Shown here: positions 29,015-64,000 of the stretch, piece by piece
Position numbering within the stretch: position 1 is the first letter of the stretch
How the letters are laid out: each line of letters begins with the position of its first letter
DNA from: Eledone cirrhosa
Lineage: Eukaryota
DNA: 64,000 nt
Direction: 5' to 3'
Assembly (NCBI GenBank): GCA_964016885.1
Contig: OZ024743.1
Coordinates: 99,014,001 to 99,078,000 of the forward strand
Program-made: the position numbers and the translations under genes
The notes under the pieces: generated by a model
Databases searched by the model: none
Told to the model about the DNA's origin: nothing
What the model saw: only the letters and a program-made list of their open reading frames with translations

Positions 29015-30367
29015 ATTGTTATACGTTGGGAGGGTCATGCTGCCAATAAAAATACATGCACTTGTTGATTGTCATCAAAGCTCTTTCAGCACACATTCTG
29101 TGACCTCCTCAGTGACTACTTTTGTTGTTGTTTTGTGTATCTCTGTTTTTCTGTCCTACACCATCTTGTTTTTCTGAGCTGTATACTTGTGGGGCACATG
29201 TGTTATATCCAAGTTTGTGTGTGTGTTTTTTTTAATTTTATTTTTTTTAAATATATTTATCTGTTTATTTATTTATTTGCTTTGTTTCCTTCCTGTCACT
29301 AGTTGGTTATTTGACTCCTTTATACATCCTGGGTGTATAAAGCCAGAGCCAAATGGATAAAAATTATAGAAAATCATGTGAATGGGACTTGCCTCATATA
29401 TAGGAGCAAAGTTTGGAATAGGATAGAGAGAACTAAGAAGAAGATAAATAAGACCAACTCCTGGTATAACAGCAACAAATACCAGAGGCAAACTAGCTTA
29501 AAGATTTAGAAGGGCTCTAGACGTATTCAAATTAAGGTAGTAGAAAAACTAGGTATCCCTATAAATTCCTTGATTAATAGAATGTACCCTTTTGAGAAAC
29601 TGCCCTGCACTTATAGAATGCAGATTAAGCTCAGAAATTAACTGTAAAACTAGGAACATAGTACATAGCATAAAGTGTAGGGGGGGGGGGGGCAGGAAAA
29701 GGACCATGGCAAACATATGTGAGTCGGCCTATAGCACAAGAGAAAAGATAAAAGAACACTATTGAAAACTTCAAGATGAGAAAAATTCCTCAGTACTGCA
29801 CCAACATGCCAGAATGTAATATAGGGGCAAACTAGAGAATATTGGGATAAAAAGGATATCCACTCACAGAGCAGATGCAGTGCTTCGACAGATTACAGAA
29901 GCAACAAACATAAACAAACTCCAACCAAAACTAAACAGAAAAGATGAGTGGGATAGCAACAACATAGTAACTAAGGACAAGATAAAGACATACAGACACA
30001 AAAACTAAACTAATAAAACAAACCAGACACAGATGTAGAATAATTAACCAATTAGTGACATGTAGAAAAGAGGGAAAATAAATAAATAAAATGCACACAA
30101 ACTAGGATATAACTCATGTGCAGCTCAAGTATACAGCTCAGAAAAACAAGATGGTGTAGGACAGAACAAAAAAGAGACAAAATAACAACAAAAGTAGTCA
30201 CTGAGGAGGTCACAGAACATGTGATGAAAGAGCTTTGATGACAATCAACAACTAAACAACCATCTGGTTATTAAACTAACCAAATGGGAAATTATAATAA
30301 ATTGAAGTGAAGCCCAACAGGTGCATGAGTTTTTATTGGCAGCTTGACCCTCCCAGAGTACAACAAT
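29015..30367 (+). mobile_element. Decayed 5'-truncated Penelope-like retroelement (linker plus GIY-YIG endonuclease) bracketed by inverted pseudo-LTRs
   Basis: 29015-29311 is the reverse complement of about 30042-30367. The interior translates, with stops and frameshifts, to IYRSKVWNRIERTKKKINKTNSWY..IKVVEKLG..PFEKLPC..NCKTRNIVHSIKC..ICESAYSTREKIKEH..SVLHQH..LRQITEATNINKLQPKLNRKDEW, the typical PLE linker and GIY-YIG C-terminus. Confidence 0.85.
30194..30246 (+). ncRNA. Degenerate type I hammerhead ribozyme-like motif in the PLE pseudo-LTR (mirror copy 29068-29119, minus strand)
   Basis: gtagtca CTGAGGA g-gtcaca-gaaca-tgtgat GAAA gagctttga tgacaat. Core boxes and stems I and II are present, but the cleavage triplet is non-canonical. 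Confidence 0.55.
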
Positions 30368-30373
30368 CTATAT

Positions 30374-30447
<74 letters not shown>

Positions 30448-30837
30448 AAATGTGTAAGTCAAACATGTTAAAGTTGGCTTCGTTTATTCTATATGTATAT
30501 ATATATATATGTAAACATATATGTACATACATACATACACTCACACACACTAACACACACACATACACACACACACACATACACATATATATATATATAT
30601 ATACATGTAAACAAACATACAAGAAATATTTACAAATGCACATAGATACATGTATTTTATGTATGTAACTGACAGCGAGAAGTTTTCTGAAACAATTTTA
30701 AGCACAGTGAATTGGGAGAAAAAAATAGACAAGTAAATATATAAATAAATAAATATATATTTTAGCAAATTTCTAACAAGAATTACAGATATTTGTTTTA
30801 AATATACAGCCATAAGTTATAGCAGTGCAGTTGTATG

Positions 30838-31842
30838 ATGTGTTATACACATACTGACAGAGCTACAGTATGTATTATACACATACATACACACAGAGCT
30901 ACAGTATGTATTATACACATACTGACAGAGCTACAGTGTGTGTTATACACATACTGACAGAGCTACAGTATGTATTATACACATACTGACAGAGCTACAG
31001 TATGTGTTATACACATACTGACAGAGCTACAGTATGTGTTATACACATACATACACACAGAGCTACAGTATGTATTATACACATACTGACAGAGCTACAG
31101 TATGTGTTATACACATACATACACACAGAGCTACAGCATGTATTATACACATACTGACAGAGCTACAGTATGTATTATACACATACTGACAGAGCTACAG
31201 TGTGTGTTATACACATACTGACAGAGCTACAGTATGTGTTATACACATACATACACACAGAGCTACAGTATGTATTATACACATACTGACAGAGCTACAG
31301 TATGTATTATACACATACTGACAGAGCTACAGTGTGTGTTATACACATACTGACAGAGCTACAGTATGTGTTATACACATACTGACAGAGCTACAGTATG
31401 TGTTATACACATACATACACACAGAGCTACAGTATGTATTATACACATACATACACACAGAGCTACAGTATGTATTATACACATACATACACACAGAGCT
31501 ACAGTATGTATTATACACATACTGACAGAGCTACAGTATGTATTATACACATACTGACAGAGCTACAGTATGTGTTATACACATACTGACAGAGCTACAG
31601 TATGTATTATACACATACATACACACAGAGCTACAGTGTGTGTTATACACATACTGACAGAGCTACAGTATGTGTTATACACATACTGACAGAGCTACAG
31701 TATGTATTATACACATACTGACAGAGCTACAGTATGTATTATACACATACATACACACAGAGCTACAGTATGTATTATACACATACATACACACAGAGCT
31801 ACAGTATGTATTAAACACATACATACACACAGAGCTACAGTA
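30838..31842. repeat. Minisatellite with interspersed 32-bp and 36-bp units, about 30 units
   Basis: Unit acagagctacagtatgtRttatacacatac followed by tg (32 bp) or atacac (36 bp). Spacing of the agct motif is always 32 or 36. Confidence 0.97.
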
Positions 31843-32069
31843 AGAATGTATAATTTACATCATACATATCTATATTTATACACATATATTATCTATAACC
31901 AGTTCTACATGCATACATAGCACGTGAATTTATGTGTGTGTGTGTGTATGAGTATATATATATGTATATATAAATAGGAATATATATACATATATACACT
32001 TATCATATATATGTACAATACATACACATTTTAACTATTTTCATCTCTAAGTGTGTGTATATATATATA

Positions 32070-32162
32070 CATACTTTTTCCTATTACCCACTCTACTACC
32101 CTAAGTATTGAGTACTCTGGTGCGTTATGGTCCACCTGGTTCCTTACCACATCTCCTTTGTT
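32070..32162 (+). mobile_element. Hairpin+tail short element, tail-only copy
   Basis: catactttttcctattacccactctactaccctaagtattgagtactctggtgcgttatggtccacctggttccttaccac is near-identical to 33259-33340 and starts in a TA run. Confidence 0.85.
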
Positions 32163-32416
32163 ACATGCTTATATATATGTGTATATACATACATACATAT
32201 TTATATATATACATATATACACATATACATATATATATATCAAATAGCTCTCTACTATACATAGAGCACTCTTCTTTCCTTTACCCTTTCTACGGAAATA
32301 CTTAACATATATCATCATCATCATTATATATATATATATATATACGTATGTATATATATATATTAAATATCAGCCGTACTAAGAGTGAGAAATGAAATTT
32401 CGTTTCATTCTTTTCC

Positions 32417-32454
<38 letters not shown>

Positions 32455-32944
32455 ATATATATATATATATATCTCTATATATATATACATATATACACAT
32501 ACATATATACATACATACACACATATATATATATACTTATATACATGTGTGTGTGTGCAAGCATATTTATGATGGCGTCTTATTGTTCAAATATTATATA
32601 CAAAGAATAGATGTTTATATACATAGATGAAATATATGCTACATAATCTATATTGAATGGCACATAGATACATTATATACATATAGCTGTAAATCTAAAT
32701 ACATGTATATCTGCCTATATATATGCACACACATATATACAAACATACACACATTATATACATATATATATATATATACTACAAAATGATATACACAATC
32801 ACATATGCAGCTTTATAACCATCCATCATATTCAGTCATTGATATACATACACATCTCCCCCTCTCCCCCATCTCTCTCTCTCTATATATATATAATATA
32901 TCAGGGAACAAAGAATCAGTGTTGCATCAGATACATATTTAATC

Positions 32945-33033
32945 ACACATTACATATGTTTCACTGTCGACCAGCTCGAGGAACGGATTAATGATCGATC
33001 CTGACTCTGGAATCGGAAGCTCCTCAGACATGT
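32945..33033 (-). ncRNA. Type I hammerhead ribozyme with intact core, within a ~215-bp pLTR-like insert (32901-33117) in TA repeats
   Basis: Minus strand reads acatgt CTGAGGA [58-nt stem II hairpin] GAAA C-atat-G TA atgtgt, giving a GUA cleavage triplet and a palindromic stem III (acatatgt). Confidence 0.75.
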
Positions 33034-33158
33034 TTTAACATGTAGACTCACGTCTAAGAGTGGTTGGATATATTATGCTGCCACACACTCTGTTAAAGGA
33101 ATGTGTCATCATTGTATTATATATATCTATATATATACACATTTATATATATATATAT

Positions 33159-33351
33159 GAAAAAGTATGATCCCGACAGCAGAGCTCAAGCCGTTTCGAC
33201 AGCTATTTCTAGATGTCCAGAATAGCCGTCGAAACAGCTTGAGCTCTGCCGTCGGGGTCATACTTTTTCCTATTTCCCACTCTACTACCCTAAGTATTGA
33301 GTACTCTGGTGCGTTATGGTCCATCTGGTTCCTTACCACAATTCCTTCGTT
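33159..33351 (+). mobile_element. Hairpin+tail short element, full copy (~50-bp arms, ~80-bp tail)
   Basis: 33159-33269 is a near-perfect inverted repeat followed by the conserved tail, with (TA)n on both sides. Confidence 0.85.
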
Positions 33352-34370
33352 ATATATATATATATACACACATTTATTATATAATTAAATCTTCCACACA
33401 CACATTCAGTAATTCAGTTTCAATGAAGTGTGTCTTCATATGTGTGTAATCACCAGGGGAACTCTGACATACCCTGGTAGCATCAATGCTGCTTGGCACA
33501 GAAAGAACCATACTGTTGTTAGGTGCCAAAATCATGTCCATCACCAGTCATCATCTGATGAAGAGAATGTTCTTCAGATAAGCTGTATGCAAATTAAATT
33601 ATAAAGTTAGAAATAATAATATATATATATTTAACTTAAGGTATGTGTAGGACTTTGTGACTACAAACACACAAACACAAATGCGTACATATATATGTGT
33701 GTGTGTATATGTATATATATTTAGAGAGAGAGAGAGTGAGACATATATAGTACAGTCTCAATTACGTGGTTTTTATACAGATATAACTTTATATATATAT
33801 GCATGTATATATATATGTGTGTGTTTGTAAGGGTGAGTATATATGTATATTTATATATATTCACACACATACATGTATGTGATTATTTCTTTATTCAAAC
33901 TGATTTAATGTAGTATTTCAACTACTTGAAGAGCAACAAGACAACATATTTTTGAGAACAGGAGTTAAGAAAAAGAAATTAAAGATGACTCTAACTGTTT
34001 ATATCCCACATCTTTCTTGAAAATTCTTAGCCATATTTCACATAAAATCATATATTTCATTTAATATTTAGCCTTTATGATACCAACTCAGCTCTGGTTT
34101 TATGAAACTAAAACCATCAATTTTAAAGGGTTCATATTTATAATAAATAAATTATTCCGACATAATATTGTATAAGAACCATATGTTAAGATATCTTAGT
34201 AATGAAATAATTAATGATTGTACCAAATCTCTCCAAATTCTTCAGTGATTAATTGAAATAGAGAGTATTTCATTAGAAATACAGTGACAGGTTAAGAAAT
34301 TCTCTCTGTCTGTGTGTCTCTCTTTTCTGTATATGTTTCTGTTTTCCCTCTCACTATTCTTCTGATTTAA

Positions 34371-34577
34371 CCCTTTAGCATTTACATTAGTCTATATTTA
34401 CTATTATATCTTTATATTTACTATTTATCTCACATAATATTGAAGCTATGAGATTTTGAGATTATTTATTTTGAGAATAATACCTTAATGTGAGTATGAA
34501 CAGCCAGTTATGGTTGGTTTGAACAGAAAGAGGTGAGAGAATTCTGGGGTGATATGGCAAGTTTAAATGCTAAGGGG
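34371..34577. mobile_element. piggyBac-type MITE
   Basis: ttaa|ccctttagcattta ... taaatgctaagggg|tttt. TIRs start with CCC after TTAA; the right TSD is degenerate. Confidence 0.6.
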
Positions 34578-35361
34578 TTTTATACAAAGACATTTTACAC
34601 CAATAATATAATTAATTTACAATCTACTGTTACATTGCTCCATACTGAGGATGTACATCATATAGAAATGGTCTTGTTGGATATAGAAAGAGTAGAGAGT
34701 ATGTAAAAGTTAAATGCATAAAGAACATGACATGTTGAGAGGCTTACCTATAATGGTAACTTTAAGAACAAATATATATACCTTCCTACTTACCTACACA
34801 AGGTATACACACACATATATATATACATACATACACATATCTATACATACATACACATATCTATACATGCCGCATACAGAAGAGAAATAAGAATTATGCA
34901 GGTATGTATGTAATATATGTGAGTGGTTGTCAACACAGTTACTTATAGACTTGAATGTATGTATATTCATACACCTCAATAGTCATGTGTATACTTATAC
35001 ACAAACACACACACACATATATTTATATTAAGCAGAAGTAGTTTATATAATGACTAAATATCACTAAGAATCCTTTGATTGATTTCTGTATCAATTTGTG
35101 TGGATCTATGGTCGAATATTTACCATTTTCCCATGTGTTTTATTAAACTTAGTATTTCTACTAAAATATAAAAGAGGCTATATTTATACATACACAGACA
35201 CACACACACAGGTTTACATAATACATGAATGTCTGTGTAGTTTGGATGTATATACGGATGTATATGTAATGTGTATGAGCCATACAACATTAGTTTAGAA
35301 GTAACATTTAAAAGGCACTGAAAAGCAATAGATATGGTCACATTGAAAGCAAAATAAATCA

Positions 35362-35420
35362 TTATTGTTGTTGCTGCTGTTGTTGTTGTTGTTGTTATTG
35401 TTATTATTATTATTATTATT
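35362..35420. repeat. (TTG)n(TTA)n trinucleotide microsatellite
   Basis: Directly visible; it explains the poly-L and poly-N ORFs. Confidence 0.95.
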
Positions 35421-35601
35421 ACTATATTTTTGGCATGCCATATATGCAGAAGACATTCTCAAACACATATACATACATACACAAACAAACACACACACAC
35501 ATATTGATGCTTATGGAGTTTATTACATAGAATCTCCCTATAGACATGCTCACATATTTACAGTTAGATATATATCAAATTCATTTTTTTCATGTATGGG
35601 G

Positions 35602-35645
<44 letters not shown>

Positions 35646-36014
35646 TTAAATATAGATGCTTTAAAGTAAACTATGCTAGGGACAGAAGCAGAGTAAAGAC
35701 ACATTTAACAAACAGATACAGAGATAGAAATAAAATATCCAGAAGATTTGTGTGTGTGACTAGATTTATATATATATATAACATATATATAACATATATA
35801 TATAACATACATATATAACATAGATATATAACATAACATATATAATACACATATATAACATACATATATAACATATATATATGCTTATATATGCATGATT
35901 ATGTGTTATATATATTACAAATAAGCAAAATAAACACAATGATCCTCCACATACATATGTATATATATATATTTATTATATATAAGTGTGTGTGTGTATA
36001 TAAATACAAACATG

Positions 36015-36049
<35 letters not shown>

Positions 36050-36408
36050 TATATATAAGTGTGTGTGTGTATATAAATACAAACATATATATATATATAT
36101 ATATAATTGAAGGTGTGTTTGTGTACATATAAATCCATACATATGTGTATATCTATATATATATATACACATCCCAGTATATGTATAGGGCCATATATAT
36201 ATATATATATATATACGTATATATATATAATAGCTGTATATTTACTCACTTATGTCAATGTCTATGCAATAACAAGAGAAATGTAAAACAATAGTGTTTA
36301 TGTATGAAACTCTATTTTAAAAAATCAACAAAAAACATAACACTCTACATTTTATGTATTGAGTTCTTTATTGTAGGTTTCTTAATCTTTGAATTAAATT
36401 AATTGATT

Positions 36409-36459
<51 letters not shown>

Positions 36460-36592
36460 ACACACATATTTATATATACATATATATATAAGCATAAGCA
36501 TATATATAAGCATAAGCACATATATATATGTATATATACATATATATATGTATATATACATATATATATGTATATATATATACATACATATA

Positions 36593-36625
<33 letters not shown>

Positions 36626-36741
36626 GCTGAAATATTCACATGCTAAATCACACACACTCTCGCAGGCACACAAATAAATACACACAATTTCATATCTATG
36701 TACATACACAACAAAGCATAAAAGTTATTTCTACTGGCAGG

Positions 36742-38415
<1,674 letters not shown>

Positions 38416-38615
38416 NNNNNNNNNNNNNNNNNNNNNNNNNNNNNNNNNNNNNNNNNNNNNNNNNNNNNNNNNNNNNNNNNNNNNNNNNNNNNNNNNNNNN
38501 NNNNNNNNNNNNNNNNNNNNNNNNNNNNNNNNNNNNNNNNNNNNNNNNNNNNNNNNNNNNNNNNNNNNNNNNNNNNNNNNNNNNNNNNNNNNNNNNNNNN
38601 NNNNNNNNNNNNNNN
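38416..38615. other. Assembly gap of 200 N (contig join)
   Basis: Exactly 200 N, the size of a scaffolding placeholder. Confidence 0.99.
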
Positions 38616-40072
38616 AAATTTTGACAGAAAATTCACATATGTTCTAACTGCTCACAGAATACGAAAAGAAACTCTTTAATATTTGATAAGACTGATATAC
38701 CAATCAAAACCAGTAATATTTGACAAAATTTAAATCCATTTAATGTAATAATTATAAAAAATATTCATTCCGTTGAATAAAGAAACAAATAATCTTTAAA
38801 AACACCCCTGTGCCTTTTCACCTTATATATTCTCTGAAATGTCATACCTTATATATTCTCTGAAATGTCATACCTTATACTTTTCTAGTTAGTTCTATGT
38901 AAATACTATGAAAGTTTAGAAAATGTTTCTTCTCAGAGTTTTGTGATAAGTTTCAATTGAACCAATATAAGTAGTGTGGTTGTGATAAAATATAAAGATC
39001 AACAAACATATACCCAGTCAGAAGAGCAGGATGGATAATTTACAACTTACAGTTTATTCCTTGGTATGTATTGGAGATATTACTAAAATAATTAACATGT
39101 GGCTTAGTTGATCTAAATGGTCTAATTTATTTATTTTCTGTGAAATAATAGTTGGGAAATATCCTCATATCTGTATATGTGATCTGTTCATATTTAATTA
39201 TTTCACTTTCTAATAGTTTTTAATCAATTATTTCTACTTATTGATATTTCCGAAATCAGAAAATTTTTTGTTTCTGCGAAGGAGACATTTGGTGCTGTAT
39301 AATATCTACAGTTGAATCAAATTGATAAGTCTCATCAGAGACTATTTTTGCCTACATGAACTTCAGTAGATGTATTAGTAGGCCAATACTGTAGAAATAG
39401 TTTAGCAATGTCTGGTTTAATTCTAATTACTCAAACAGCTCACAATACATAAATAAATAACAATAAAAATGATTAAAAAACTAAATAAGAACTGTCCAAA
39501 ATTTCCATCCCTTTCTCTTTTCTCAAATTTTGTTTTGGTTTAATTTTCTCTTTTTTATCATCATTCAGATTCATATTTTTTTAAAGATCTAATATATGTC
39601 TGGAGATTCTTTGCTATGAGTTAAAAATGAAATGAGAAACAAACAAACAAAAAAAAAACATATCACAAAAAGCATATAGGAATTTGACAAAAAAAAAAAC
39701 CACCTGCTTCGTACTAATTTCATTGTTGATATCTCATCAAACTAATACACTTTCTCTTTTCTTTCAGTTTTTTTTTTTCACGGACAACATTATTTGAACA
39801 GTCATAAAAGGTTTTTTTGAGATTACATTTATGTTTTTTTGATTTACAATTTACTTTTTATATTAGTTTTCATCAAGTGTCAATACTGTCATGAAGCAAA
39901 GCTATAACTCTCCATTATCCATTGTGGCTAAGTGGTCTGGAGAGATAGGACCAATTAACAGAGGCAGTAATTAGCAGGGCAGCTGCTTGGCCAATTCAAC
40001 ATGGTTCCAAAGTATATGTATATGCATGCGGTGGTTGTGTATGTGTATATGTTGTGTGTGCATCAGACAAGG

Positions 40073-40189
40073 TTACTTGAGTCTCTGAGTAACATTTGCC
40101 AAAGCTACGGCAAAAGCCTGCAAGGCAGTGAAAGGGTATTGAAAATCCAAGGTATATGCATTGCTGTCTATTCTTCCAAACTGCATTAC
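40073..40189 (-). CDS. TULP4: Tubby-related protein 4, last coding exon (VMQFGRIDSNAYTLDFQYPFTALQAFAVALANVTQRLK*)
   Basis: Acceptor tttcttatcatcag|GTA, phase 0, 38 codons plus TAA. The peptide is the characteristic TULP4 tubby-domain C-terminus. The ORF track shows only a wrong frame here. Confidence 0.95.
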   Translation of the reverse strand, partial: VMQFGRIDSNAYTLDFQYPFTALQAFAVALANVTQRLK

Positions 40190-42689
40190 CTGATGATAAG
40201 AAAATATGAAAAAAAAAATACATTAAAAAAAAGTTTAAATCAAAAAAATATATATTATCTTCAAACAAAATGACAATATATAACATGATGTAACTGGTTT
40301 ATTTCAAATTTACTACATTCAAACATTTTATCAAGAGTAGTATACTTCTATATAAGTTTCTGTACATACAGAATTTTATGATGGTCTGAAACAGTTAACT
40401 GAAAGGATAACTCAGCATAGATTGTGATTGGCAGGTAACTGTAAGAGATTCTGAAGAAATAGCCTCCATTCTAGTAATGACAGCACATTAGTGGATTAAC
40501 CATGAGAGAAAACTCTTCAACTACCTTGACCTACTTTAAAAAGATAAGAAACACAAACAATGATGGAGCAAGTCATCTGGTATGAGTGTTTCTCTGGTTC
40601 AATCAATTCAAAGTAAAAACTGAGTTAGAATAAAGTTAACTAACTTCATGTTTTCTTCTATGTAGTTTTGTTTATAATAAACTACACAACTCTATTAGCC
40701 TCAATTATAAATGATAGTATATGAGAGTTCCCCACAATCTGAGCAAGGGATTTTTAAGTACTGAAATAGGATGTAAAAAAAAAATAATTACCAGGTAACA
40801 CCCAAACATCTTTATTTTCATTTAAACAAAATTTTACAGTCCATTTTACATTGTTTTAGCCTTCTTAAAAACATTACACACTTATACACAATGTTTCAAG
40901 CAAACTACAACACTCTATTAAAAAAAATACTTTTGAATATATTTTTGAATAGTGTTATCACCTAAAGTCTGAAAATTTATATAACATCCAATAAGATAGT
41001 TAATAGTTGCAATATAATGACTGCATACCAATAGTTGTCATATAAGCTATGCTAATCAGTTATTGTTTTGTAACCCTAGTTCAGGCCCTGATTGAGCAGA
41101 TCTATGATGAAATGTGTTCAAAGCATGACCATGTCCCTTTTTTTATTTTGTGATATGAAGGAAATTTAGCTGCTATTTCCAGTAGGTTGAGTAATTACAT
41201 TTCTCTTTGTTGATTCATCTTCAATGAGTATAATTAGTATATGCTAATATTAGCTTATTCACAATCCTTTAAGGACAAACAATTCCTCTGACTATACATC
41301 AGAGGTACAAAGCCTGTGGGCCTTATCTCAAATAGGTCTTAGGTGCTCTGAAATTTATATTTTATTTCATTAAATCTTGTATTAAAATAAAAGCCATGAG
41401 TTATGGCTCAACCTTTGAAGCAGTTTCCAATAAAATTCCAAGTAAAAAAAATCAAACTGAGTAAAAATAAATGAACTAACTTCATGTTTTCTTGTATATA
41501 TTTTTATTAATAATAAACTATGCAGCTCCATTAGTCTCAATTATTATTTTGTTAAGCTACAAATGACTTCAATTTCCCCTCCCCCTGCTACACATATGTT
41601 CATTCTGTTTTCTAAACTCAAACTGAGCTGATTCATACAGAATTATTCATACATAATTATATCTGGATTTTGAACGCTGTCTTTATTATATTTTATATTC
41701 AAAGCACCTTACACTTTAATATTTGTCTCATATGATATATTTACAGGATAATTTGATGAATAACAAGTAAATTTTATTAAACTATGTCTAAATAGGTGGA
41801 AGGTTTTTGGTATTAGTGTTGTTTAAGTCAACTAGTCAATTTATATACAACCCAAGTAAGCCACCATTACTGAATATAGCTTTTGATTGCAGATTACATA
41901 TTCTGTTTACTCACTTGAATATCAGTGTTTAGCTTTATAAACTGATGGTGAATTACCAGAAATGTTAGAGCAGAGCTGGTACTACTATTAGGCTAACTAA
42001 CAAGCTGCTTAAGGTACATACTTGAGAGTGGTGTATTACTGAACTTAAAGGGTCACAGATTCATACAAATATATATAATTGAATTAAATAATTAATAATT
42101 TCATGTGATTAATAAATAAATTACTAAATATCTTTAAGTAGCAGCAATTTGGAGATATTTAAAGTGGTGAAGAGGGTCATATGGTGTTATGACCTATAAC
42201 ATAATCTGACATGGGTGAGTGTGAAATGTGTAGTAGAAAAGTCAGACTAAGTAATTTTCTTATTGCCAGAGCAAGTGTCAAAAGCTATGTTTGTAAGCTT
42301 GCCAGAGAGTAACTTGAAATATTTTATTTGGGAGAATGAGGCACACACTGTATGGCTAGACTAAGGTATTAAACCCCTAGATACAAGTCCCATTTAGATG
42401 AAATACCTCATAGTATTTATTACTGTCCAGGTTAAGGCAGTGGACTGGCAAAGTCATTTGAACATGATATAGAATGCCTAGTGGAATTTGTTTTGGTTCT
42501 TTTTGCATTCTGAGTTCAAATCCTATCTTAGCCAATATGGGGGTGCTAGACTTATTTGGTTGCCTTCCCCTTTGACTTAGTGATAAAAAAACTAAAAACC
42601 TTGTTGCTTACTCTATATAATTGTTACACACACAAGTTAATTTTTCATTTGCAATAAGATTGCTGATCATAGTTCTAACTTTTTCGTTT

Positions 42690-43004
42690 TCATATTTCTA
42701 ATGAATGACACTGCCTATGATTTCCAAATAATTTTGAAAATAATCAAGAATTTGGAGGGATTTAGTAATATAACTTCATTATTAAGCTGGTTTCTGGAAC
42801 ATAACTTAACAGAGGTTCTTACATAAAATTATGATGCAAGGTTTTTAACTAAATATAAATACTAATGTTAAGATATTGTTCTCAAAATAAATAACGTCAA
42901 AATATCATAGATTCAATATTATGTGAAATAATTATGTGGAGGTAAAGCTTTTACTGTGAAAATGAAATAGTAAATATAGAGTAATGTAAATGCTAAAGGG
43001 TTAA
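42690..43004. mobile_element. AT-rich piggyBac-type MITE fragment, with related pieces at ~44717-44800 and ~45905-46120
   Basis: Ends in taaatgctaaaggg|ttaa, the same TIR as 34371-34577. The internal block cctatgattt.caaataattttgaaaataa..aagaattt recurs three times. Confidence 0.55.
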
Positions 43005-43369
43005 ATCAAACAGTTTATATCATTGAATAAAGATTATTTCAGAAAATTTGGTATCAGAATGTTAAACATTCTCTATCTGAGTAAATAAAACTTTAGTGAA
43101 ATATTTTCTTAATTATGTTGTTGCTTTTAAACTATCAGGATGGCTCTGGTTACAAGAAAATGCAGTTTGGGCATTGAATACAGAATGCTAAATTTAAAGA
43201 TAGGATGACGTCTGAGTAATAGAGCTGTTTGGTAGCTTATAGTTCCGTGTTCACCACATAAAATAACTGAAAATCTCACTTTAAGGACATTGAAACATTT
43301 AAAGATCACGAATGGCCAAGTTGATAAAGTACAAGACAACTAACTTGAAGGTTAACAATTCATATCTGT

Positions 43370-44330
43370 CATCAACAGCTACTTTATTTTATCAACCCTG
43401 AAAGTTGACTTCAGTGGGATGTGAACACTGCAAGGTATTTTGCCCAATGTTCTAATTCTGTCAATCCACCATAATAATAATTGTTTCTACTCTTGGCACA
43501 AGGCCAGCAATTACCCGAGTGCATTACTAGTACTTTACTGGTACTTTATTTTATCGACCCCGTAAGGATGAAAAGCAAAGTTAACCTCGGCGGGATTTGA
43601 ACTCAGAATGGCAAGGGCCGTAACTCTATGCATCAAAGTATGGCGTCTGACCCTCTACCGACATTGCCAATCCACCGCCCTAATCCACTATAATAATAAT
43701 AATGATAATTGTTTCTACTTTTGGCACAAGGCCAGCAATTACCCCAGTGCATTACTGGTACTTTATTTTATCGACCCCGTAAGGATGAAAGACAAAGTTA
43801 ACCTCGGTGGGATTTGAACTCAGAATGGCAAGGACCGTAACTCTATGCGTCAAAGCATGGTGTCCAACCCTCTACCGATACTGCCAATGGTTTCTGATTT
43901 TAGACAAAAGGTCAACAATTTCGTGGAAGGGAAAGTCAATTAAATTGACTCCAGTACATTACTGGTACTTTATTTTATTGACCCTGTAAGGATGAGAGGC
44001 AAAGTTAACCTCGGCAGGATTTGAACTCAGAACGTAACTATATGCAGTAAAGCATGTTGTCCAATAATAATAATAACAAAGACAGAGTTGATTATATCCC
44101 AGAACTTACCTGGAAATTTATGTTATTGACTCCAGAAAGGTGAAAGGCAGAGGTAATCTCAGAATTTTAATTCAGAATATAGAAAGTTGTAACTAAATAT
44201 CACAAAGTATTTTGTCTAATGCTCTACTGATTCTGCCAATCTACTGCCCTAATAATTGTTTTTCTATTACTGGCAGAAGGCCAGTAGTTTAGGGAAAGGA
44301 GAAAGTCGAATATATTGACTCCAGTAATAT
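43370..44330 (-). mobile_element. Head-to-tail cluster of 5-6 tRNA-derived SINEs with a Nin/Deu-like central domain
   Basis: Repeated ggtactttattttatcgaccccgtaaggatgaaa..caaagttaacctcgg..ggatttgaactcaga (B-box gttcaaatcc on the minus strand) near 43540, 43757, 43964, with degraded copies near 43380 and 44110. (aat)n tails lie between copies. Confidence 0.85.
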
Positions 44331-44384
44331 TAATATTAGTAATATATCCACCCCAACAAAAAAATTAAATAAATCTTCTCTCAC

Positions 44385-44576
44385 CTGACGTCCTCTAAAC
44401 TCAATTTGAAAGTTTTTGGCCGATTCCTGTGTCACACGCCCTCCGAAGTCCAACTGATACACCTGACTGCCTTCATTCCATAATGGTGCTTTATTGTACA
44501 TAACAAACTGGCGTCCAGCACACACTGTACTGGAACCCATGCGGCGTGGCTCTCCACGACGTCGTGCTTTTCGAAT
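44385..44576 (-). CDS. TULP4: Tubby-related protein 4, penultimate coding exon (IRKARRR...FVMYNKAPLWNEGSQVYQLDFGGRVTQESAKNFQIEFRGRQ)
   Basis: Acceptor ttgtttcag|ATT, donor CAG|gtgaga, 192 bp, phase 0/0. Contains the tubby motif NKxPxWNE..YxLDFGGRVTQESAKNFQI and joins in frame to the exon starting at 40189. Confidence 0.95.
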
Positions 44577-46265
44577 CTGAAACAAATAGAAAAATAAATA
44601 ACTATATTTAAACCTGTATGATATTACCCAGTGTTCCCATGTCTGATGGAAGCTTCCAAGGACTATCATGGATTCCTTCTTAAACCTTTCATTACAATAT
44701 TTCCAAAGAAAAGAAAGACATTGCCTATAATTTTCAAATAAGTTTGAAAATAATTGAAAATTTGGAGGGATTAAGTAATATAGGTAAGTTTCTCATTATT
44801 AATTCATGACTTCCTGTAGCACATGAAACTGCATTACCAGTACAGAACAACATTATGACTACATCATATTAAAAATTAAAGTCTTTAATTTGGTTTACTG
44901 TAAATTTCTACAATGATCTGTCCACTAGGAGAGATATTATAAACATTTGAATTAACAACCCTGTTTTTTTTTCTTTATTTCTTACTAAATCATTACAGGA
45001 TGTTAAGAGTTGAACTAGTGTTCAGGGAATAACTTAAAGGTTCTTAAATAACATTATTATGGAGGTGACAGTAAACAGCTTAGAATAAACAGCTTTGTAT
45101 CTTAGAACCAGAGACAGTTCCAGATTTTGAGTGAGGAAATGAACGTTGTGATATGCCTTTTACAATGGTATTAGTGATATAATGAAAGAATATTAAAACT
45201 GGGAATTGAAACTTAGTAATGGATAGTTCTTCTTGGGAACCTTAATTGAGCATTACACCTGAGAAACCATGAAAAACGAAACAGAAAATTAGATTATCCT
45301 TATTACCCTCCAATTTTTCTCCTCATCATTACAGTCATGACTTACATCTGTCCTAGTTGCTGACAAGGTTTGTTTCTCAAGTAGTTTCTGATAGAATCAT
45401 CATAATCATCATCATTTAATGTCCATTTGGACAGGCTTTCACTGATTGAGTCAGTACTTAAGCTACTGACCTCCCAGACAGACCAGGGTCCACAGTTCCC
45501 TTACATATGGTTTCATGCTCCACTGAGTGCATTTTATCATGACACCAGCACTTGAGAAATTGTCATGTTTTGACATAACTGAAGGGTCCTCCAAACTCTT
45601 TGTTTGGCAAGCTTTCTATGAATGGATGCCCTTCGTATCACCAACCACAGTGTGTACTGCGTGTGTTTATTGTGTAGATAACTAGGGAGGCTGTCCTCCC
45701 AACCCTTTCTTTAGAAAGCCTTCTACCACTTTACAGCATGTACTGGGTGTGTTTATTGAGTGAAACACCAACACTAGAGAGATTGTCATGCCGCTGACAC
45801 AACTGATGTACCCCAAATTTACTTCTATCAACCATTTTCAAACTGAGTAAAAATCACTAGAATAGTAATCAGAGGATTGTTAAATGTACTGGGGACTACG
45901 ACATATTTCTAATGAAAAATGATACCTATGATTTTCAAATAATTTTGAAAATAACCAAGAATTTAGAAGCATTTAGTAACACAATCAAATTTTCCATTAT
46001 TAAGCTGATGTTTGGAGCATAATTTAACAAAGGTTCTTACAAAAAATCTTTTTGGAAGGTTTTGAGATAAATATAAAAACTTCAAATCAAATAGTTTTGT
46101 GTTGTAGAACTAAGGGGAGTTTGATATAAAAAATATTTCTGCACAGTCCAAACTCTTTCAGTTGCATCATGGAAGTGCTATTTTAGCCATTTAGACTCTC
46201 ACTACCACCACAAAACAAACCCTCTTATATCATTTTACATTATTACATCAAGTTATTATTACATA

Positions 46266-46460
46266 GGGCGGTGTATTGGCAGTATCGGTAGAGGGTCAGA
46301 CGCCATGCTTTGCAGCAAAGAGTTACGGCCCTTTATGGTCTGAGTTCAAATCCCGCCGAGGTTAACTTTGCCTTTCATCCCTACGGGGTCGATAAAATAA
46401 AGTACCAGTAATACACTGGGATAATTGCTGGCCTTGTGCCAAAAGTAGAAACAATTATTA
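46266..46460 (+). mobile_element. Full-length tRNA-derived SINE, same family as the 43.4-44.3 kb cluster
   Basis: A-box-like tggcagtatcgg, B-box gagttcaaatcc, central gaggttaactttgcctttcatccctacggggtcgataaaataaagtaccag and tail gaaacaattatta. The sequence attacat occurs on both flanks as a possible TSD. Confidence 0.85.
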
Positions 46461-46780
46461 CATCAAGTTAAATTTTTGTTGTACCTCACAAAACGAGAGA
46501 AAAGTGACTATAACAATTTGTGTGATTTATTAAATAGTTAAAATCCCATGATGTAACTGTTTCAGTTTTAACATTTCAACATTTAGTCTCAGATTAATTC
46601 ATCTTCCAAGCAAATACAACTTTCAAACTTCTTTTCTTTTAATAAATTCACTAGTAGGACCTGTTAGTCCGCATCAACAAGTTTGTATAAACAAATCAAA
46701 AGTGGAATAACCTTTTTGATATTGAACCCCCTGAAACTGCTTCTGGTTCTCTAGTACAAAGCTGTTTATTTTAAAGTGTT

Positions 46781-46811
<31 letters not shown>

Positions 46812-47204
46812 CGAGAGTTCAAAGAATCAACGAACAGAGCTACACAATGTCTTATTCATTATCACCATGAAATTGGATAATATGATGGAAAAAATTGTGA
46901 GTTTACATTTATCTTATTTACAAATACATATTGAGAGCATTCACAGGTGGACGTATACAGTAATTAGAGTATTAAAAAATAATTTCTTATTTTCATATTT
47001 CATCAACATAATTGTAATATACATTTCTGAAAATATATCTCTGTAAACAGAATGGCAGACTTGATTGTGGTATGGTGGATAAGACCATGAAAATCCTGTA
47101 TGAAATAAATGTTCATGAGGCTAATACTGAATTAAATACATGTACATAGTAAATACGGCACATAATGATAAACTGCTAGAAACTTGTTTGACAAAAATAT
47201 TTAA

Positions 47205-47620
47205 CAATAGTTTCTGATTTATGCACAAGGACAGCATTTTTGGGGGAAGGGAAAATTAATTATACCGACCCAGGTTCTTTGCTGGAACTTTATTTTATCG
47301 ACTCCAGAAGGATAAAATGCAAAGTTGACCTCAGCAGGAGTTGAATGTAAAGAGCTGGAACAAATAGCTGCAAAGCATTTGTCTGATGCTCTAATGATTC
47401 TGCCAGCCTTCTTAAAATATAATGCTTTCTGACTTAGGCACGAGGCCAGCAATTTGGGGAGAAGGGAAAGTCAATTAAATTAACCCCAGTACATGACTGG
47501 TATTTTATTTGATCAACCTTGTAAGGATGAAAGGCAAAGCTAACCTCGGTGGAATTTGAACTCAGAATGTAAAGAGTCATGTCCAATGCTCTACCAATGC
47601 TGCCAACCCACTGCCCTTTA
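47205..47620 (-). mobile_element. Two tandem copies of the Nin-like tRNA SINE; further copies at ~42435-42530 (+), ~49060-49200 (-) and ~56670-56810 (-)
   Basis: Same central domain (aggatgaaaggcaaag.taacctc) and B-box. Confidence 0.75.
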
Positions 47621-49991
47621 TAATGTAATAACAATCATTTGTATTAAACATATTTTATACCTATTTCATAACATCTGTCAAACACGAGCCAATGTTGAGC
47701 CACCACATGGTTTTATTATCTGCCAGAAACAGTCACCAATTTCCTCTCAAATCACAACTTGCCATTTAAAAAAAAATGGACGGCCACATTGGATGATGTA
47801 GTCCTAAATACACTCTTTAAAAAAGGCCACATTGGATGATGTAGTCCTAAATACACTCTTTAAAGAGGCAGCATAATGATCATAAACAACAACAACAACA
47901 ATATCATTTGAGCAGATCAATGTGTCTTCTAATGTTACCTAGCCTATTAAACCAATGTGGACATAGCATGGACAAATGGTAAAAAAAAGATTTTAATCAT
48001 GTAATCATTGATTCAATCTCAGTTTGTGATACTTTAGGTAAATGTCTTGTAAGTAAAATTGGGTAGACAGAAATTGTATGGAAGCCCAACAAATGGATTG
48101 TGTCTCTGATCCAAAGATGCAGCCTTGTCACAAAACTGTGTCCCACAGATTCAGTTTCGAAGTTACGTTATGGCACTGTGGAGTATTCAAGCACATATTA
48201 ATCTATGGTTTGGATGACCGGTTGATAGAAGAACTGTATGCTCATCATGAAAACCGATGGAGGATCCATCATTATTAGGCCAATACTGCTTAAATAAAGT
48301 TTAACCACTTTATTTTAACATCTTAGTTTTTATGATGAAAATATCAAATGATCTGTCAAATATTATCAAATTTGTCCTGTAGCACTAATAAATCTGTGAA
48401 ATACATTTCTTATTTGAGGCTATTTCTAATGTCTGACATGAATCAGTTTGAAGTGGAAGCCAATTTGTGATGCCTTATTAGAACTCTTCGAATGAAAGCA
48501 GTCACTGACAAGTTTAATGATCAAATAGAAACCATCATGATTTTCTTCAATCTTCTTTTGGATCAAATAAGCAATTACATCAATGTATAATAATACCAAG
48601 TTGATATTAACAATGTAATAAGAATGTAATAAGAATAGCTTTATTATGTCAGTCTTTGTTAGGAACCGTGGAGGATATTTGATTATCTAAGTCAACAAAA
48701 CAGTGAAGTCAGAAGGAAAGAAGGAGATTTATTATTATTAGTGAATGTCATAATCTGTTCTATGAGAAGAAGCAAACTAATAGCTTTGGCTTTCTTGAGT
48801 GGGAAGAGAAAAGTTATTTGTAGACTGGTCACCTATCTTGAATGCTTCCAACAAAGTGGACTCAGCCAAAGGAGGCAATCAAGGGCCAGGTAGGAATGTT
48901 AAACCAGGCAATGGATTCTTCTCTTTTTCTTAACTCCTAAGTCAGTGGGCATTGGGCATTTCTTTTCTTAAACTTGGCAGAATTCATCCCGTCTCTAGGT
49001 CTGAACACAGAGAAAGAGAAAGTGTGATAGAGAGGAATTGAGAGATATAGAGAAAGAATCAATCTGGACTGGTACTTTTCTTATCAACCTCAAAAAGGTG
49101 GAAGGCATTGTTGACTTTGGTAGGTTTTGAAGCCAGAACATAGAGGGCTGGAATGAATATGGCAAAGCATTCTATCTGACATTCAAACGACTCTCCCAGT
49201 CTTGAAAATAATTACTGGGGTTGATATGAGCCACTAAATCCCTTTATGGTAGTGCTCCATCATGGACATAGTTTATAGTCTTCTTGGTTTATTTCTGTCA
49301 TTCTACATTAATGTATATATTTATGTTGCCTTTAAGGCAAAATAAAGAAATCCTTGTATTATTACTATTTTTTATAGTTGAGTCAGAAGGGGGTGGGATA
49401 TATGTGTATGTGTATGCATGTGTCAACATCTATTTTATATAATTCTAAAACAGCAGATTCAAATACTGGTAGCTAAAGTATATATTATTTTAGTTGTCAT
49501 TGTTGTCATCATTGTGCCCATCATCTTTATGTCTGGTTTCTATGTTGGCATGGATTGGTGGGTTTCTCAGACCAAGTCAGTTCTTATTCAAAGTTATGAC
49601 CCTCCTAAATAGGATGGAAGACTATATTTCCCTCGTGCATTCCATTTTGGGTATGGTCTCTGTAGTTGGATACCCCTTTTAATATCAACAATTTACAGAA
49701 TGTACTATGTACATTTTATTGTGCCATCAGCACTACTGAAGTTGTCAAGTACTTGACTAAAGTGTCCACTATACCCTACATTGTTTCCTTTTGGTTGCCA
49801 ACTATTTACTGTGTGTAGTGGGTGCATTTTATCATGACAACGGATCTAGTGGATTTTTGGCCTTAAGAAATTTGGTGAAAGCAGGATGGTTGGTTTTCAA
49901 CATCAACAAAGGTTTCAAACAAATATAGCATGCACATCTCAGGATTGCCTATGAGCTTCATCTATTTCTTAGATCAATGACTTCTTGTCAG

Positions 49992-50023
<32 letters not shown>

Positions 50024-50024
<1 letters not shown>

Positions 50025-50213
50025 GAAAAGAGTCAGGACCCCGTAGGCTGAGCTCCGGCAGTTTTGACAGTTGAGATCTAGCTGTCAAAATGGCCGGAGC
50101 TCAGCCGTTGGGGTCCTGACTATTTTCCTATTACCCACTCTACTACCATACGTATTGAGTACTCTAGTGTGTTATGGTCCACCTGGTATCCTACCACACC
50201 CTCTTTGTTTGTT
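50024..50213 (+). mobile_element. Hairpin+tail short element, divergent subfamily copy
   Basis: Inverted repeat 50024-50128 plus tail tattacccactctactaccatacgtattgagtactctagtgtgttatggtccacctgg, with (TA)n on both sides. Confidence 0.85.
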
Positions 50214-50232
50214 ATATATATATATATATATA

Positions 50233-51452
50233 TCATCATCATTATCGTTTAACGTCTATCTTCCACGCTAGCATGGGTTTAGACAGGAATTGTCCTACTT
50301 GCGGCAAGATTGGTCAGGTGACCATGTCTCGCTCGTATAGGACTGTCTGGCAGGTTTTCTACGGCTGGATGCCCTTCCTAGCACCAACCACATTTACAGT
50401 GTGGACTGGGAGGTTTTTACCATGTTACCTACACGGCCACATTACAGCGTGGACTGTGTGTTTTTGTTGTGACACCTACACGATCTCATATATTTAGGAC
50501 TGGATATTGTGGTACCAACATAACTTTACAGAGAAAGGGTGGTGTTGGTGGAGTGGGGTGAGTAGGTGTAGTGGGATGGGGTATATATTTTGGTTAAGAG
50601 GTAGGTTTCGCTTTGTACATAGGCAAGGCGGGTTTTCTGTATTACTGCATAGCGCCAAAGCTCTCGGTCCAGTGACAATGTCTTAGAGAGGTGTAAGTGT
50701 GTAAGGTCGGAATTTATCAAATTGTCCCAGGTTTTTCTGGGTCTGCCTACTCCGTAACTTCCATCAATTTTGATCGCCCTGCACTTTTTTATACAGCTGT
50801 CGTCTTTCATGCACATCACGTGTCCATACCAACGTAGTCTTCTCTCGAGTAAACAGCCCCTCTTATTCCTAATTTCTCACTTAGTTCATTTATGCTTTGC
50901 TGTTCACGTATATTACTATTTCACATCCAACAGAGTATGGATGCTTTGTTCCTCTCCAGTCTGCGCAGATCCTCTGCACACAAGGCCCATGTCTCACTGC
51001 CATGTAGCATTGCTGTTCGTATGCAGGCATCATACAGTCTGCCTTTCATTTTTAGAGAGAATCCTTTAGCAGCCAATAGCAGTATAAGCTCTCTGAACCT
51101 TTTCCATCCTGTTCTGACTCTGGCTACTATACTTTCAGAACACCCTCCACCACTGCTGATTTTGTCACCCAGGTAACGGAAGATATCCACTATTTCTATA
51201 GAACCATCTGGGCAATAGAAGGAGCTAGTATCCTGTGGGCACTTGCTACTTATTGCACCTGAGCATCAGCCACATATAAAATCTACGTTCTTAGATAGCT
51301 TACCTGTGATCCAACTACATCTTTTATGTACCCATAGTTTGCATTTGGGACATAAAATGGAATTTCTGCCTACTCCTTTCCTACACACTGAGCATGGCCA
51401 TTTCCCAGAGGGTACCTGTACCCTATTTTCCTTTCTACATACTAGAACTTTA

Positions 51453-51490: not shown

Positions 51491-51667
51491 TATATATAAA
51501 TACAAAGACCCAAATCTGAAGAGGCCTCGGTAAGGATTGTATATATATATATAAGTGTATATAAACCCATAGAGCAAATATTTATTATTAATACAGACTA
51601 AAGCAAAGAATTTCTGCTTTCATCCTGTATAGGATCTTCTGAAATGAAGATATATATATATATATAT

Positions 51668-51835
51668 AACAAAGGAATTGTGGTAAGGAACCAGATGGAC
51701 CATAACGCACCAGAGTACTCAATACTTAGGGTAGTAGAGTGTGAAATAGGAAAAAGTATGACCCCGACGGCTATTTCAGGACTCAAATAGCCGTCGAAAC
51801 AGCTTGAGCTCTGCCGTCGGGGTCATACTTTTTCC
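51668..51835 (-). mobile_element. Hairpin+tail short element, reverse copy with a deletion in one arm
   Basis: Reverse complement of the 33159 element. The tail-proximal arm has lost the segment between two gacggc repeats. (TA)n flanks. Confidence 0.85.
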
Positions 51836-55230: not shown

Positions 55231-57070
55231 TTTAGAAATAATTCCTGATACACTCAGTTGCAGTAAAAGTTTAGAATGTAAGCAAGCTGTTTTTTTTTTT
55301 AAAGAGAACTAAACAAATGATGAAAAACATAAAATCACGGAAGTGTAAAATATTCCCCAATAGATATTAGAGCTACATATGAACCAAATTAGGAAGAACT
55401 CTGGAAAAGGAAAGCTATAAGTCAACAAGTCGAAGATATATAGAATGTGAACTCAGTCTCTAAGAAACCCCAGACACCCGCTCCCCTCTTTCTAATAATG
55501 AGGTAGGGATGTAAATGAGATGTAAAAGGAGTTAGAAATCCTTGAATAGTTTCTAGAATATCTGCTTATCATTAGTTTGAGAAAGGATGAGGATCGAGTT
55601 AGGCCACAGGTAGTGAGGATGTAGGTAGACAACAGGTAGTATAGTGCTAGAATATTAGCTCAGACATTTGAAATAAGATAAGCAAGGAATACATGAAATG
55701 AAAAATGAAATTTGCAGCTTGCACCTATGCAGGTTTACATGGCCTTCTACAAGGCTGCATCTTATAGGAGATTTCTGGGGTGTTTTAGTGACTAAGGCTC
55801 TCAGTTCAATCACAAAAAGCAATATGAAATGAAGTGTACTTGCTCAAGAACACAATGCATCACCCATTCTGGGAATCAAACTCACAACCTCATTAATGTG
55901 AATCTGACACTCCTATCACTAAGCTACGTGCCTTCACAACAGCCTAACCATTAGGTCATATACCCTCAGAATTCACACCAAGTATTAGGTTTACCTAACA
56001 GGAAATGAAAAGCAGAAAGTTAAAGGGAATGAAAACTGTGAAAGTTTGCAATAGCAAGACCTTGTTCATTGGAACTATTATATCTCCAGGGGAAATGTTT
56101 CCTTCTCTTTTTATCAAATTTAAAACATAAACGTCTGAGAGTAAATAAGTCTACAGAAGGCCGCAGGATATGAAGTAGGAATGGAACAAGGAGACTTTAC
56201 CATATCTAAATTAAAGATCAGATGGAATATGGTGAGCGAATCAATTAAATGTGGTCAAATGGCTGGGAGGACATTTCAGTTGTGTCAAGAAGGTGACAAT
56301 CTTCTTAGTGCTGGTGTCATGATAGAATGTACTCAATACACAGTACACTCTATAAAGTGGTTGGCATTAGAAAGGGTATTCAGGGGTAGAAACCATGCCA
56401 AAACTCGGAAAGTATGATGTGGCTCCTTGTCTCTAATTATATAAGTACTGACACGGTCTATGACCACTCGTCCAACTGTTGCCATATGGAGAAATGCACA
56501 TGATTATAATAAGGTCTAGAAATGCAGTAGAACTGGGATAGTTACTTACTGAACAAATATGTAAAATTGTACTTGAAGGAATATACTACTAAAGACAGGT
56601 GTAATATCATCATTGTTAATAGTAGTTGTATAGATAAGAACTAGCCTAATACATAACCTAAGGGATCAAATAACTGTTTCTACTTTTGGCACAAGGGCAG
56701 CAATTATATCAGTATATTACTGGTACTTTATTTTTTAGACCCCGTAAGGATGAAAGGCAAAGTTAACCTCAGCAGCATTTGAACTCAGACAATAAAGGGC
56801 CATAACTGGTCTGAGGGAACAAATAGTGAATGCAATTGAGAGTCATTACGATGTTAGCAGTTAGAGTAGAGTGGTGGAGAGAATGAAACAAGGTTTTGAT
56901 CTAAGGCATAGAAAAGTGGGGGAAAAGAAAGTACTTGACACCACCAATAAATAAATACACAGCAAGTGCTGGTGGAACTAGACATTGTAAGACAAAATGA
57001 CATGAAAATATATTCAGAACATTCACAGACACCACAAGTTAGCAACACAAAGAAACAACAACATTATTTT

Positions 57071-63000: not shown

Positions 63001-64000
63001 ATAGCTATCATGGGCTGTAGTTCCACTACTGTACAACAATATATCTATCATGGGCTGTAGTTCCACTACTGTACAACAATATATCTATCATGGGCTGTAG
63101 TTCCACTACTGTACAACAATATATCTATCATGGGCTGTAGTTCCAGTACTGTACAACAATATATCTACCATGGGCTGTAGTTCCACTACTGTACAACACT
63201 ATATCTATCATGGGGTGTAGTTCCACTACTGTACAACAATATATATATCATGGGGTGTAGTTCCACTACTGTACAACAATATATCTATCATGGGCTGTAG
63301 TTCCCCTACTGTACAACAATATATCTATCATGGGCTGTAGTTCCACTACTGTACAACAATATATCTATCATGGGGTGTAGTTCCACTACTGTACAACAAT
63401 ATATATATCATGGTGTGTAGTTCCATTACTGTACAACACTATATCTATCATGGGGTGTAGTTCCACTACTGTACAACAATATATCTATCATGGGCTGTAG
63501 TTCCCCTACTGTACAACAATATATCTATCATGGGATGTAGTTCCATTACTGTACAACAATATATCTATCATGGGGTGTAGTTCCACTACTGTACAACAAT
63601 ATATATATCATGGTGTGTAGTTCCATTACTGTACAACAATATATCTATCATGGTGTGTAGTTCCATTACTGTACAACAATATATCTATCATGGTGTGTAG
63701 TTCCACTACTGTACAACAATATATCTATCATGGACTGTAGTTCCACTACTGTACAACAATACATCTATCATGGACTGTAGTTCCACTACTGTACAATAAT
63801 ATATCTATCATGGGGTGTAGTTCCACTACTGTACAACAATATATCTATCATAGGGTGTAGTTCCATTACTGTACAACAATATATCTATCTATCATGGGCT
63901 GTAGTTCCACTACTGTACAACACTATATCTATCATGGGCTGTAGTTCCACTCCTGTACAACAATATATCTATCATGGGGTGTAGTTCCATTACTGTACAA
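57071..64000. repeat. 40-bp tandem satellite, consensus acaacaatatatctatcatggggtgtagttccactactgt, about 173 units, open at the window end
   Basis: 40-bp period. The only indels seen are -1 near 57411, -1 near 59170 and +4 (ctat) near 62121 and 63885. Confidence 0.98.

Follow-up and report, generated by a model that had tools for sequence, protein, structure and literature searches.

Penelope-like elements and their insertions

Penelope-like elements (PLEs) typically combine partially tandem copies that form a pLTR, an inverted 5'-truncated copy, and a tail at one end (PMC8557442, PMC3846280, PMC2377424; here and below, papers are cited for those portions of them that were available). Among these elements, the Hydra clade is marked by a C-terminal GIY-YIG endonuclease without the CCHH motif, by the motifs RW(K/R), DKT, CxCx5C, CxxC, and CxH, and by a hammerhead in the pLTR, and almost all of its families insert into (TA)n (PMC8557442). 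The formation of the inverted repeat and of the one-sided tail is described as an open matter in section 15 of the same paper, and in vitro work on the Poseidon element PAc of Anolis, as far as the available portions of that report go, answers the question only partly: two initiation sites, both internal, mark the limits of the tail, cleavage and extension occur on both strands, and a dimeric form is predicted (Frangieh et al. 2024, PMC11167929). Fold-back self-priming has been proposed as the source of PLE inverted junctions (PMC3846280), Penelope carries an internal promoter (PMC2377424), and an extra G has been described as a mark of capped full-length L1 insertions (PMC11702581).

Copies in the window

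The DNA analyzed here (the window) is a stretch of 64,000 nucleotides from Eledone cirrhosa (assembly GCA_964016885.1, contig OZ024743.1, positions 99,014,001 to 99,078,000). An initial annotation reported four copies of a ~190-bp unit consisting of a hairpin and a tail, and all four are confirmed: copy A (33159..33351, + strand) and copy C (51668..51835, - strand), both of subfamily A, copy B (50024..50213, + strand), and copy D (32070..32162, + strand). Sequence comparison within the window gave 82% identity between copies A and C (E 3e-54), 95% between copy A and copy D, and 83% over 120 nt between copies A and B; in a small correction to the initial annotation, copy B belongs to a separate subfamily, B. 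The hairpins of copies A, B, and C are stable when folded with DNA parameters (-49.9, -53.2, and -37.1 kcal/mol, respectively). As had been reported, (TA)n lies on both sides of these three copies, and copy D begins in a TA run, with TA resuming 7 nt past its end.

With element positions counted from the inferred transcription start (+1), copy A is a whole stub insertion in (TA)n. Its inverted, tail-less arm (33159..33213, - strand), mapped on the natural long copy L263, corresponds to element positions ~+3 to +57, its forward arm (33215..33270, + strand) to +2 to +58, and its PLE tail (33271..33350, + strand) to +59 to +138. This forward arm makes up the 3' half of the hammerhead in the pLTR, and its predicted parts on the + strand are a GAAA at 33231-33234, helix III, a GTC cleavage triplet at 33251-33253, and the 3' strand of helix I. 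Copy B consists of an inverted arm (50024-~50078), a forward arm to 50128, a tail (50129-50208), and then a short duplication of the end; its centre is the self-complementary word AGATCT (50074-50079). Copy C has its tail at 51748-51669 (- strand), a tail-bearing arm that begins at +1 (51783, - strand) and is preceded by an untemplated G (51784), and a tail-less arm running from +8 to +58 (51785-51835, + strand). Copy D starts at +47 and consists of 12 nt of arm followed by the tail (32082-32161), so that its description as tail-only was right as to the tail, which stands as a single stub with no inverted partner, but overlooked the retained piece of arm. Similarly, a palindrome of ~105-110 bp describes the hairpins generally but not that of copy C, which measures ~89 bp because its tail-bearing arm is without 23 nt between two GCCGTCG direct repeats. 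A loss of ~23 nt between GCCGTCG repeats, spanning helix III of the hammerhead, is recurrent (copy C at 51765-51771 and loci such as L270 and L321); internal gaps of at least 18 nt occur in 12 of 149 tail-bearing arms, and the deletion between the repeats is possibly a jump of the reverse transcriptase (RT) across the stem.

The parent element

In copies retrieved with the tail alone, the outer ends are fixed and the centres and arm lengths differ. One of these copies (L084/L091) shares the layout of the stubs and has a 2.7-kb tail-less arm that encodes an RT followed by an endonuclease. In tandem copies, found by a search with the N-terminal region of the ORF, arm and tail lead into a 5' UTR with an ATG at +232. 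The unit measures 3,091-3,126 bp in three of them (L180, L181, and L186), and the ORF frame spans 719 codons in L186; no unbroken full-length ORF is present among the 20 long loci examined. The hairpin-and-tail repeats derive from a PLE, a parentage that we regard as practically certain. The hairpin consists of two 5'-truncated copies in head-to-head orientation, and the 80-nt tail is that known from PLEs. The general PLE layout, with partial tandems forming a pLTR, an inverted 5'-truncated copy, and a tail at one end, is shared exactly, from 190-bp stubs to full-length tandems, although the tails of known PLEs are given as 30-40 nt in the portions available (PMC8557442, PMC3846280, PMC2377424).

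These results bear on several proposals of the initial annotation. Long copies linked to RT and GIY-YIG sequences, for which it recommended a search, do exist, with arm and tail continuous with the RT and GIY-YIG element. That the unit is non-autonomous, unclassified, and mobilised by a partner is contradicted by the contiguity of arm and tail with the ORF for RT and endonuclease, and a Helentron/HUH or tyrosine-recombinase partner is not needed. The suggestion of a fold-back PLE end with microsatellite targeting was correct in kind, and its TA prediction holds, but simple fold-back copying is disfavoured (see below).

The ORF contains the RT motif YRDDG, and VIYQ...YIG is found in 13 of the 20 long loci. 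Neither Pfam applied to pieces of the ORF nor profile and sequence searches of the PDB gave a match, and a fold search was required. A structure modelled for a naturally occurring open stretch of 513 residues (mean pLDDT 81.7) matched the folds of a DGR RT (Z 13.3) and of telomerase RT (Z 13.2), and residues 374-477 of the model matched the GIY-YIG catalytic domain of I-TevI (Z 9.0, rmsd 2.5, 89/92 aligned). By motifs and fold, the single ORF codes for an RT followed, at the C-terminal side, by a GIY-YIG endonuclease. Homologues are numerous (1,133 at E <=1e-10 among 8,000 scored, mostly ~40% identical), and RVT_1 and GIY-YIG are annotated in part of the members of the neighbouring protein-atlas groups.

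Three subfamilies (A, B, and C) were distinguished, each with its own long form. Diverged Hydra-like ORF pieces with second CNC...CPL motifs occur in the flanks of L179, L190, and L172, and another diverged Hydra-like piece (L193:2379-3665) has 72% identity over 1.3 kb. The occurrence of such pieces both beside and apart from the 3.1-kb family indicates that several related families are present in the genome.

Clade placement

The clade was assigned from motifs, with reference Hydra proteins compared by eye, and on this basis the element is very probably a PLE of the Hydra type. The endonuclease lies C-terminal to the RT, as in the Hydra clade; RWR is present in 13/20 and SDKT in 18/20 of the long loci, in agreement with the RWK and DKT marks of that clade; the linker motif CxCx5C is found in 13/20 and LNK..E....CxH in 17/20; and a CxxC motif is also present, CxxC and CxH being placed about the conserved E and N in the Hydra clade. 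The CCHH motif is lacking, with no CxxC within the GIY-YIG core of the query or of 83 homologues. A parent of the Naiad/Chlamys type, whose GIY-YIG domain is N-terminal, was considered and rejected, the endonuclease following the RT and the start of the ORF being free of it.

The nearest named mollusc member is Hydra-1_Obim, with which the element has in common the Hydra motifs, a pLTR hammerhead, and (TA)n targets (PMC8557442). In the available portion of that source, 21 of the first 43 residues are identical to those of Hydra-1_Obim (hand count), and the hammerhead listed for Hydra-1_Obim is unlike that of the present element. Moreover, the present unit is 3.1 kb long, compared with generally <3 kb in the Hydra clade (PMC8557442), its family has copies in the tens of thousands, and its hammerhead has a U3-A8 core that is not canonical. 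Two DNA words of the element are absent from the available parts of the supplements to PMC8557442, where long sequence runs are incomplete, and to PMC13282606. The family thus appears, from sequence, to be distinct from Hydra-1_Obim, and a consensus filed as 'Penelope' or 'Unknown' in Dfam or Repbase possibly exists already. The literature searched, the coverage of which does not extend to subscription journals and Repbase Reports, holds no account of stub-dominated PLE families, of the rule of one tail per insertion, or of this family. Anatomy and clade are already known, and what appears to be new is the family itself, within a described clade.

The hammerhead of the pLTR

Each arm of a stub represents the 3' half of a hammerhead of type I; in long copies, the 5' half is found upstream. 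The core sequence is TTGANAAG, with U3-A8 in 88/96 cores, G8 in none, and position 7 free. In 15 copies from the three subfamilies, the three helices are paired in 92.7% of cells, and helix II has three pairs with two-sided change, which are inherited by subfamily and do not represent independent events. These features match a hammerhead motif, a candidate ribozyme, in the pLTR, with the U3-A8 variant core in place of the canonical CUGANGA. Rfam returned no hammerhead match on the pLTR and, on the window, only microRNA models below their gathering scores. A U3-A8 hammerhead variant has been reported in Schistosoma PLEs, and the covariation in the core is shared with them; compared with the available portion of that description, the present motif differs in having a full 5-bp helix III stem, a loop II of ~34 nt, and stubs with the 3' half only (Cervera and de la Pena 2014, PMC4209133). 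Two further interpretations were rejected. Ribozyme cleavage at the predicted cut (+41/+42) is not the source of the 5' ends of stubs, as none of 149 tail-bearing arms starts at +41 to +44 (bins further upstream in this tally were disregarded, since a partner arm was included in two of the templates), and non-LTR retrozymes, which in the available portion of their description are tandem units each with a complete hammerhead (10.64898/2026.07.22.740005), do not match stubs that are arranged head to head and contain the 3' half only.

Abundance and TA targets

A 24-mer from the tail has 15,569 exact matches in the 3.0-Gb genome, compared with 0 for the reversed control, which makes it a repeat far beyond chance. 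Evenly spaced samples totalling 600 kb contained 10 tails, 5 of which had the exact 24-mer, and tail-bearing insertions can be estimated roughly at 30,000-50,000, from a small sample in which small chromosomes are over-represented. Enrichment for TA flanks, which the initial annotation had proposed as a check, is borne out: (TA)n is found at 197 of 212 outer ends versus 8.6% of random 18-mers. The enrichment applies to ends with a tail (98/109, the remaining 11 reading on into the 5' UTR of the element) and to tail-less ends (99/103) alike. In contigs from short reads, the summed depth is much greater across +1 to +138, and strand-switch joints lie at +0 to +4; the runs may come from the same sample as the assembly and the depth does not give a copy number, so that these data are not counted as independent support. 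At L300-L304 (C4, about 204.1-204.6 Mb), one stub is repeated five times together with its flanks, which is likely a segmental duplication, and four of the five stubs were dropped as duplicates or merged ahead of counting.

Insertion junctions and proposed mechanism

The reading of the stubs that we favour, and consider reasonably probable from their sequence, is that they are made within (TA)n by paired target-primed reverse transcription on the RNA of a Hydra-type PLE, close to the 5' end of that RNA. The GIY-YIG domain would cut both strands of a TA run; one 3' end would prime at +58 and the other at +138, where TAT in the template can pair with the TA target; both cDNAs would proceed toward the 5' end of the RNA; most would end on reaching a capped transcription start within the pLTR hammerhead or shortly before it, some with an extra G; and repair would join the two cDNA ends through microhomology or filler. 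Long and full-length copies could arise by priming on the downstream pLTR or by read-through of tandem RNA. In LINE-1 twin priming, both target ends prime cDNA and a 5' inversion results, as proposed here. The L1 segments do not overlap and start from the poly(A), whereas in the present family both cDNAs would usually cover the same 58 nt and so produce a palindrome. The closest experimental parallel is PAc, with which the present element shares two initiation sites that delimit the tail, an AT-rich target, and insertion ends that are not set by the hammerhead cut (PMC11167929). The initiation sites of PAc are inside the ORF, whereas those proposed here are in the 5' UTR, and the portion of the PAc report available describes neither homology of the initiation site to the target nor a difference in start between strands, in contrast to the TAT overlap and the use of one site per target end in the present family; this difference counts against paired priming at +58 and +138 (PMC11167929).

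The outer ends of the insertions are fixed at two points, +58 and +138, which are 80 nt apart; in the template, a TAT comes just after each of them. The number of tails per insertion was counted in 98 consecutive arms that were picked by arm, regardless of tail, of which 41 were excluded (24 long arms whose partner lay beyond the region seen and 17 with no detected partner). Exactly one tail is present in 53 of the 57 two-sided insertions, while three have none and one has two (p 3e-12 versus 50%). One tail per insertion implies that the two target ends use different start points, +58 and +138. In known PLEs the tail is likewise at one end, but the present family differs in that the majority of its insertions are minimal stubs, limited to the inferred RNA's first 138 nt, and that a single tail is nearly the rule.

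The inner ends are more variable. Among 220 arms that keep +11 to +27, the mode is at +1 (32 arms), 147 end between +1 and +11, and 28 reach at least 13 nt upstream. In the set of 98 consecutive arms that extend to +1, the end lies at +1 itself in 31, at -1 in 19, and at -2 to -11 in 28, and 20 continue for at least 12 nt; exact genome-wide counts fall from 8,637 for the word starting at +1 to 3,070 from -3 and 1,538 from -7. Position +1 is the A of TTAGT, which presumably resembles an initiator and is kept in subfamilies A, B, and C. A G precedes +1 in 2,121 matches genome-wide, at a position (-1) where the template has T, and the partner arm could supply it in about half of the G-preceded arms. 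When only untemplated bases are considered, G is found before +1 in 11/19 cases versus 8/35 elsewhere (p 0.017), and in a second, partly overlapping consecutive set it is found in 9-10 of 13-14 cases (p 0.004-0.009); overall, C is as common as G at -1 (15 versus 16) and is mostly explained by the partner. The statistics for the untemplated G are modest and come from partly overlapping sets. As judged solely from these DNA junctions, run-off of the cDNA at a (capped) transcription start is fairly likely.

A rather unlikely alternative keeps the same parent and the paired priming, and attributes the pile-up of inner ends to a stall of the RT or a break of the RNA in loop II of the hammerhead, caused by structure or by a bound protein. 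The position of the site in loop II just past helix II, within a hammerhead that has compensatory changes, would be expected under this explanation, as would a stop zone spread over ~-6 to +11. That the stop wall is not sharp counts against run-off: 28 of the 98 arms end at -2 to -11, counts still halve from -3 to -7 (partly through variation between subfamilies), and many arms end at +2 to +11. Against a stall or break, the mode lies 7 nt inside the single-stranded loop and not at the entry of the helix, TTAGT is conserved while the surrounding loop has diverged, the excess of untemplated G is specific to +1, and stubs do not begin at the predicted ribozyme cut.

Unlikely as well is self-priming, in which one cDNA of the same parent folds back and copies itself and the centres are trimmed later. 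Mismatches per 46 nt are fewer between arms of the same insertion than between those of different ones (4.2 versus 6.9), the centre of some copies coincides with a self-complementary word (AGATCT, GAGCTC), and a single tail per insertion would be expected if only tail-bearing cDNA folded back, all of which agree with self-priming. A copied arm cannot exceed its template, yet among 54 one-tail pairs the tail-less arm is the longer upstream in 21, the tail-bearing arm in 21, and 12 are ambiguous; in L091 the tail-less arm reaches 2.5 kb further. Tail-less arms are also found joined directly to a tail with almost no arm, or solitary in TA, and the fixed stop at +58 is left unexplained by self-priming. 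The 21:21 distribution of arm lengths is a better fit to separately primed cDNAs than to self-priming as put forward in the available portion of PMC3846280, and origin of the palindrome from two such cDNAs is accordingly judged, from the arm sequences, quite likely, with the reservation that arm lengths could also come to look independent if long palindromes lost their centres after insertion. Among copies found with copy A, a one-base asymmetry between arms recurs, which was discounted as an ascertainment effect of the query.

An independent hairpin element, non-autonomous and copied whole by a partner (of MITE, Helentron, or recombinase type, or a fixed SINE derived from a PLE), would account for the near-uniform length of ~190 bp, the very high copy number, and the MITE-like TA/GG...CC/TA ends, but is highly improbable given 24 different centres in 30 near-identical copies, arm lengths that are continuous up to full length, contiguity with the RT-endonuclease ORF, and three subfamilies each with a long form of its own. 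The statement of the initial annotation that the unit is not a standard MITE stands, since the repeat fails as a terminal inverted repeat: 80 nt of tail lie outside it, its centres vary, and its arms enter the RT ORF. The differences in centre from copy to copy further indicate that each stub was apparently made afresh at insertion.

Paired priming can also be framed more strongly, with the 190-bp palindromic stub as the default product of retrotransposition, a protein dimer always priming at +58 and +138, and both cDNAs running off at a start that splits the hammerhead; on the sequences at hand, we give this version an even chance. If true, a single rule would explain why PLEs have an inverted repeat, a tail on one side only, and an apparent 5' truncation, and would be recorded in tens of thousands of insertions. 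The family is a useful natural record of PLE integration, in which tens of thousands of minimal insertions lead to predictions at the level of single bases (two sites of priming, each serving one target end, and a start of the RNA at +1). For annotation, abundant TA-flanked repeats that resemble hairpin MITEs can be PLE stubs.

Other repeats in the window

Two long satellite arrays, at 1-27024 and 57070-64000, have a 44-bp unit (614 copies, 93% matches) and a 40-bp unit (at least 173 copies, 94% matches), respectively, and a 32-bp minisatellite lies at 30838-31822. Other short dispersed repeats embedded in (TA)n, at 32345-32419, 51554-51649, and 32240-32324, have 45, 38, and 12 matches, respectively, in 1.7 Mb of loci, mostly flanked by TA, and could represent the ends or tails of additional PLE families that target TA. 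A broken LINE fragment (50236-51445, - strand), the frames of which we take to resemble the C-terminus of an RTE-type RT, directly adjoins the TA flank of copy B, and similar fragments ending in (ATC)n abut TA runs at many loci. Finally, a short TA-embedded piece at 51500-51540 contains the word CTGAAGAG, which resembles a hammerhead core; sequence like it is found beside L039 and, reversed, in L271, L306, and L318.
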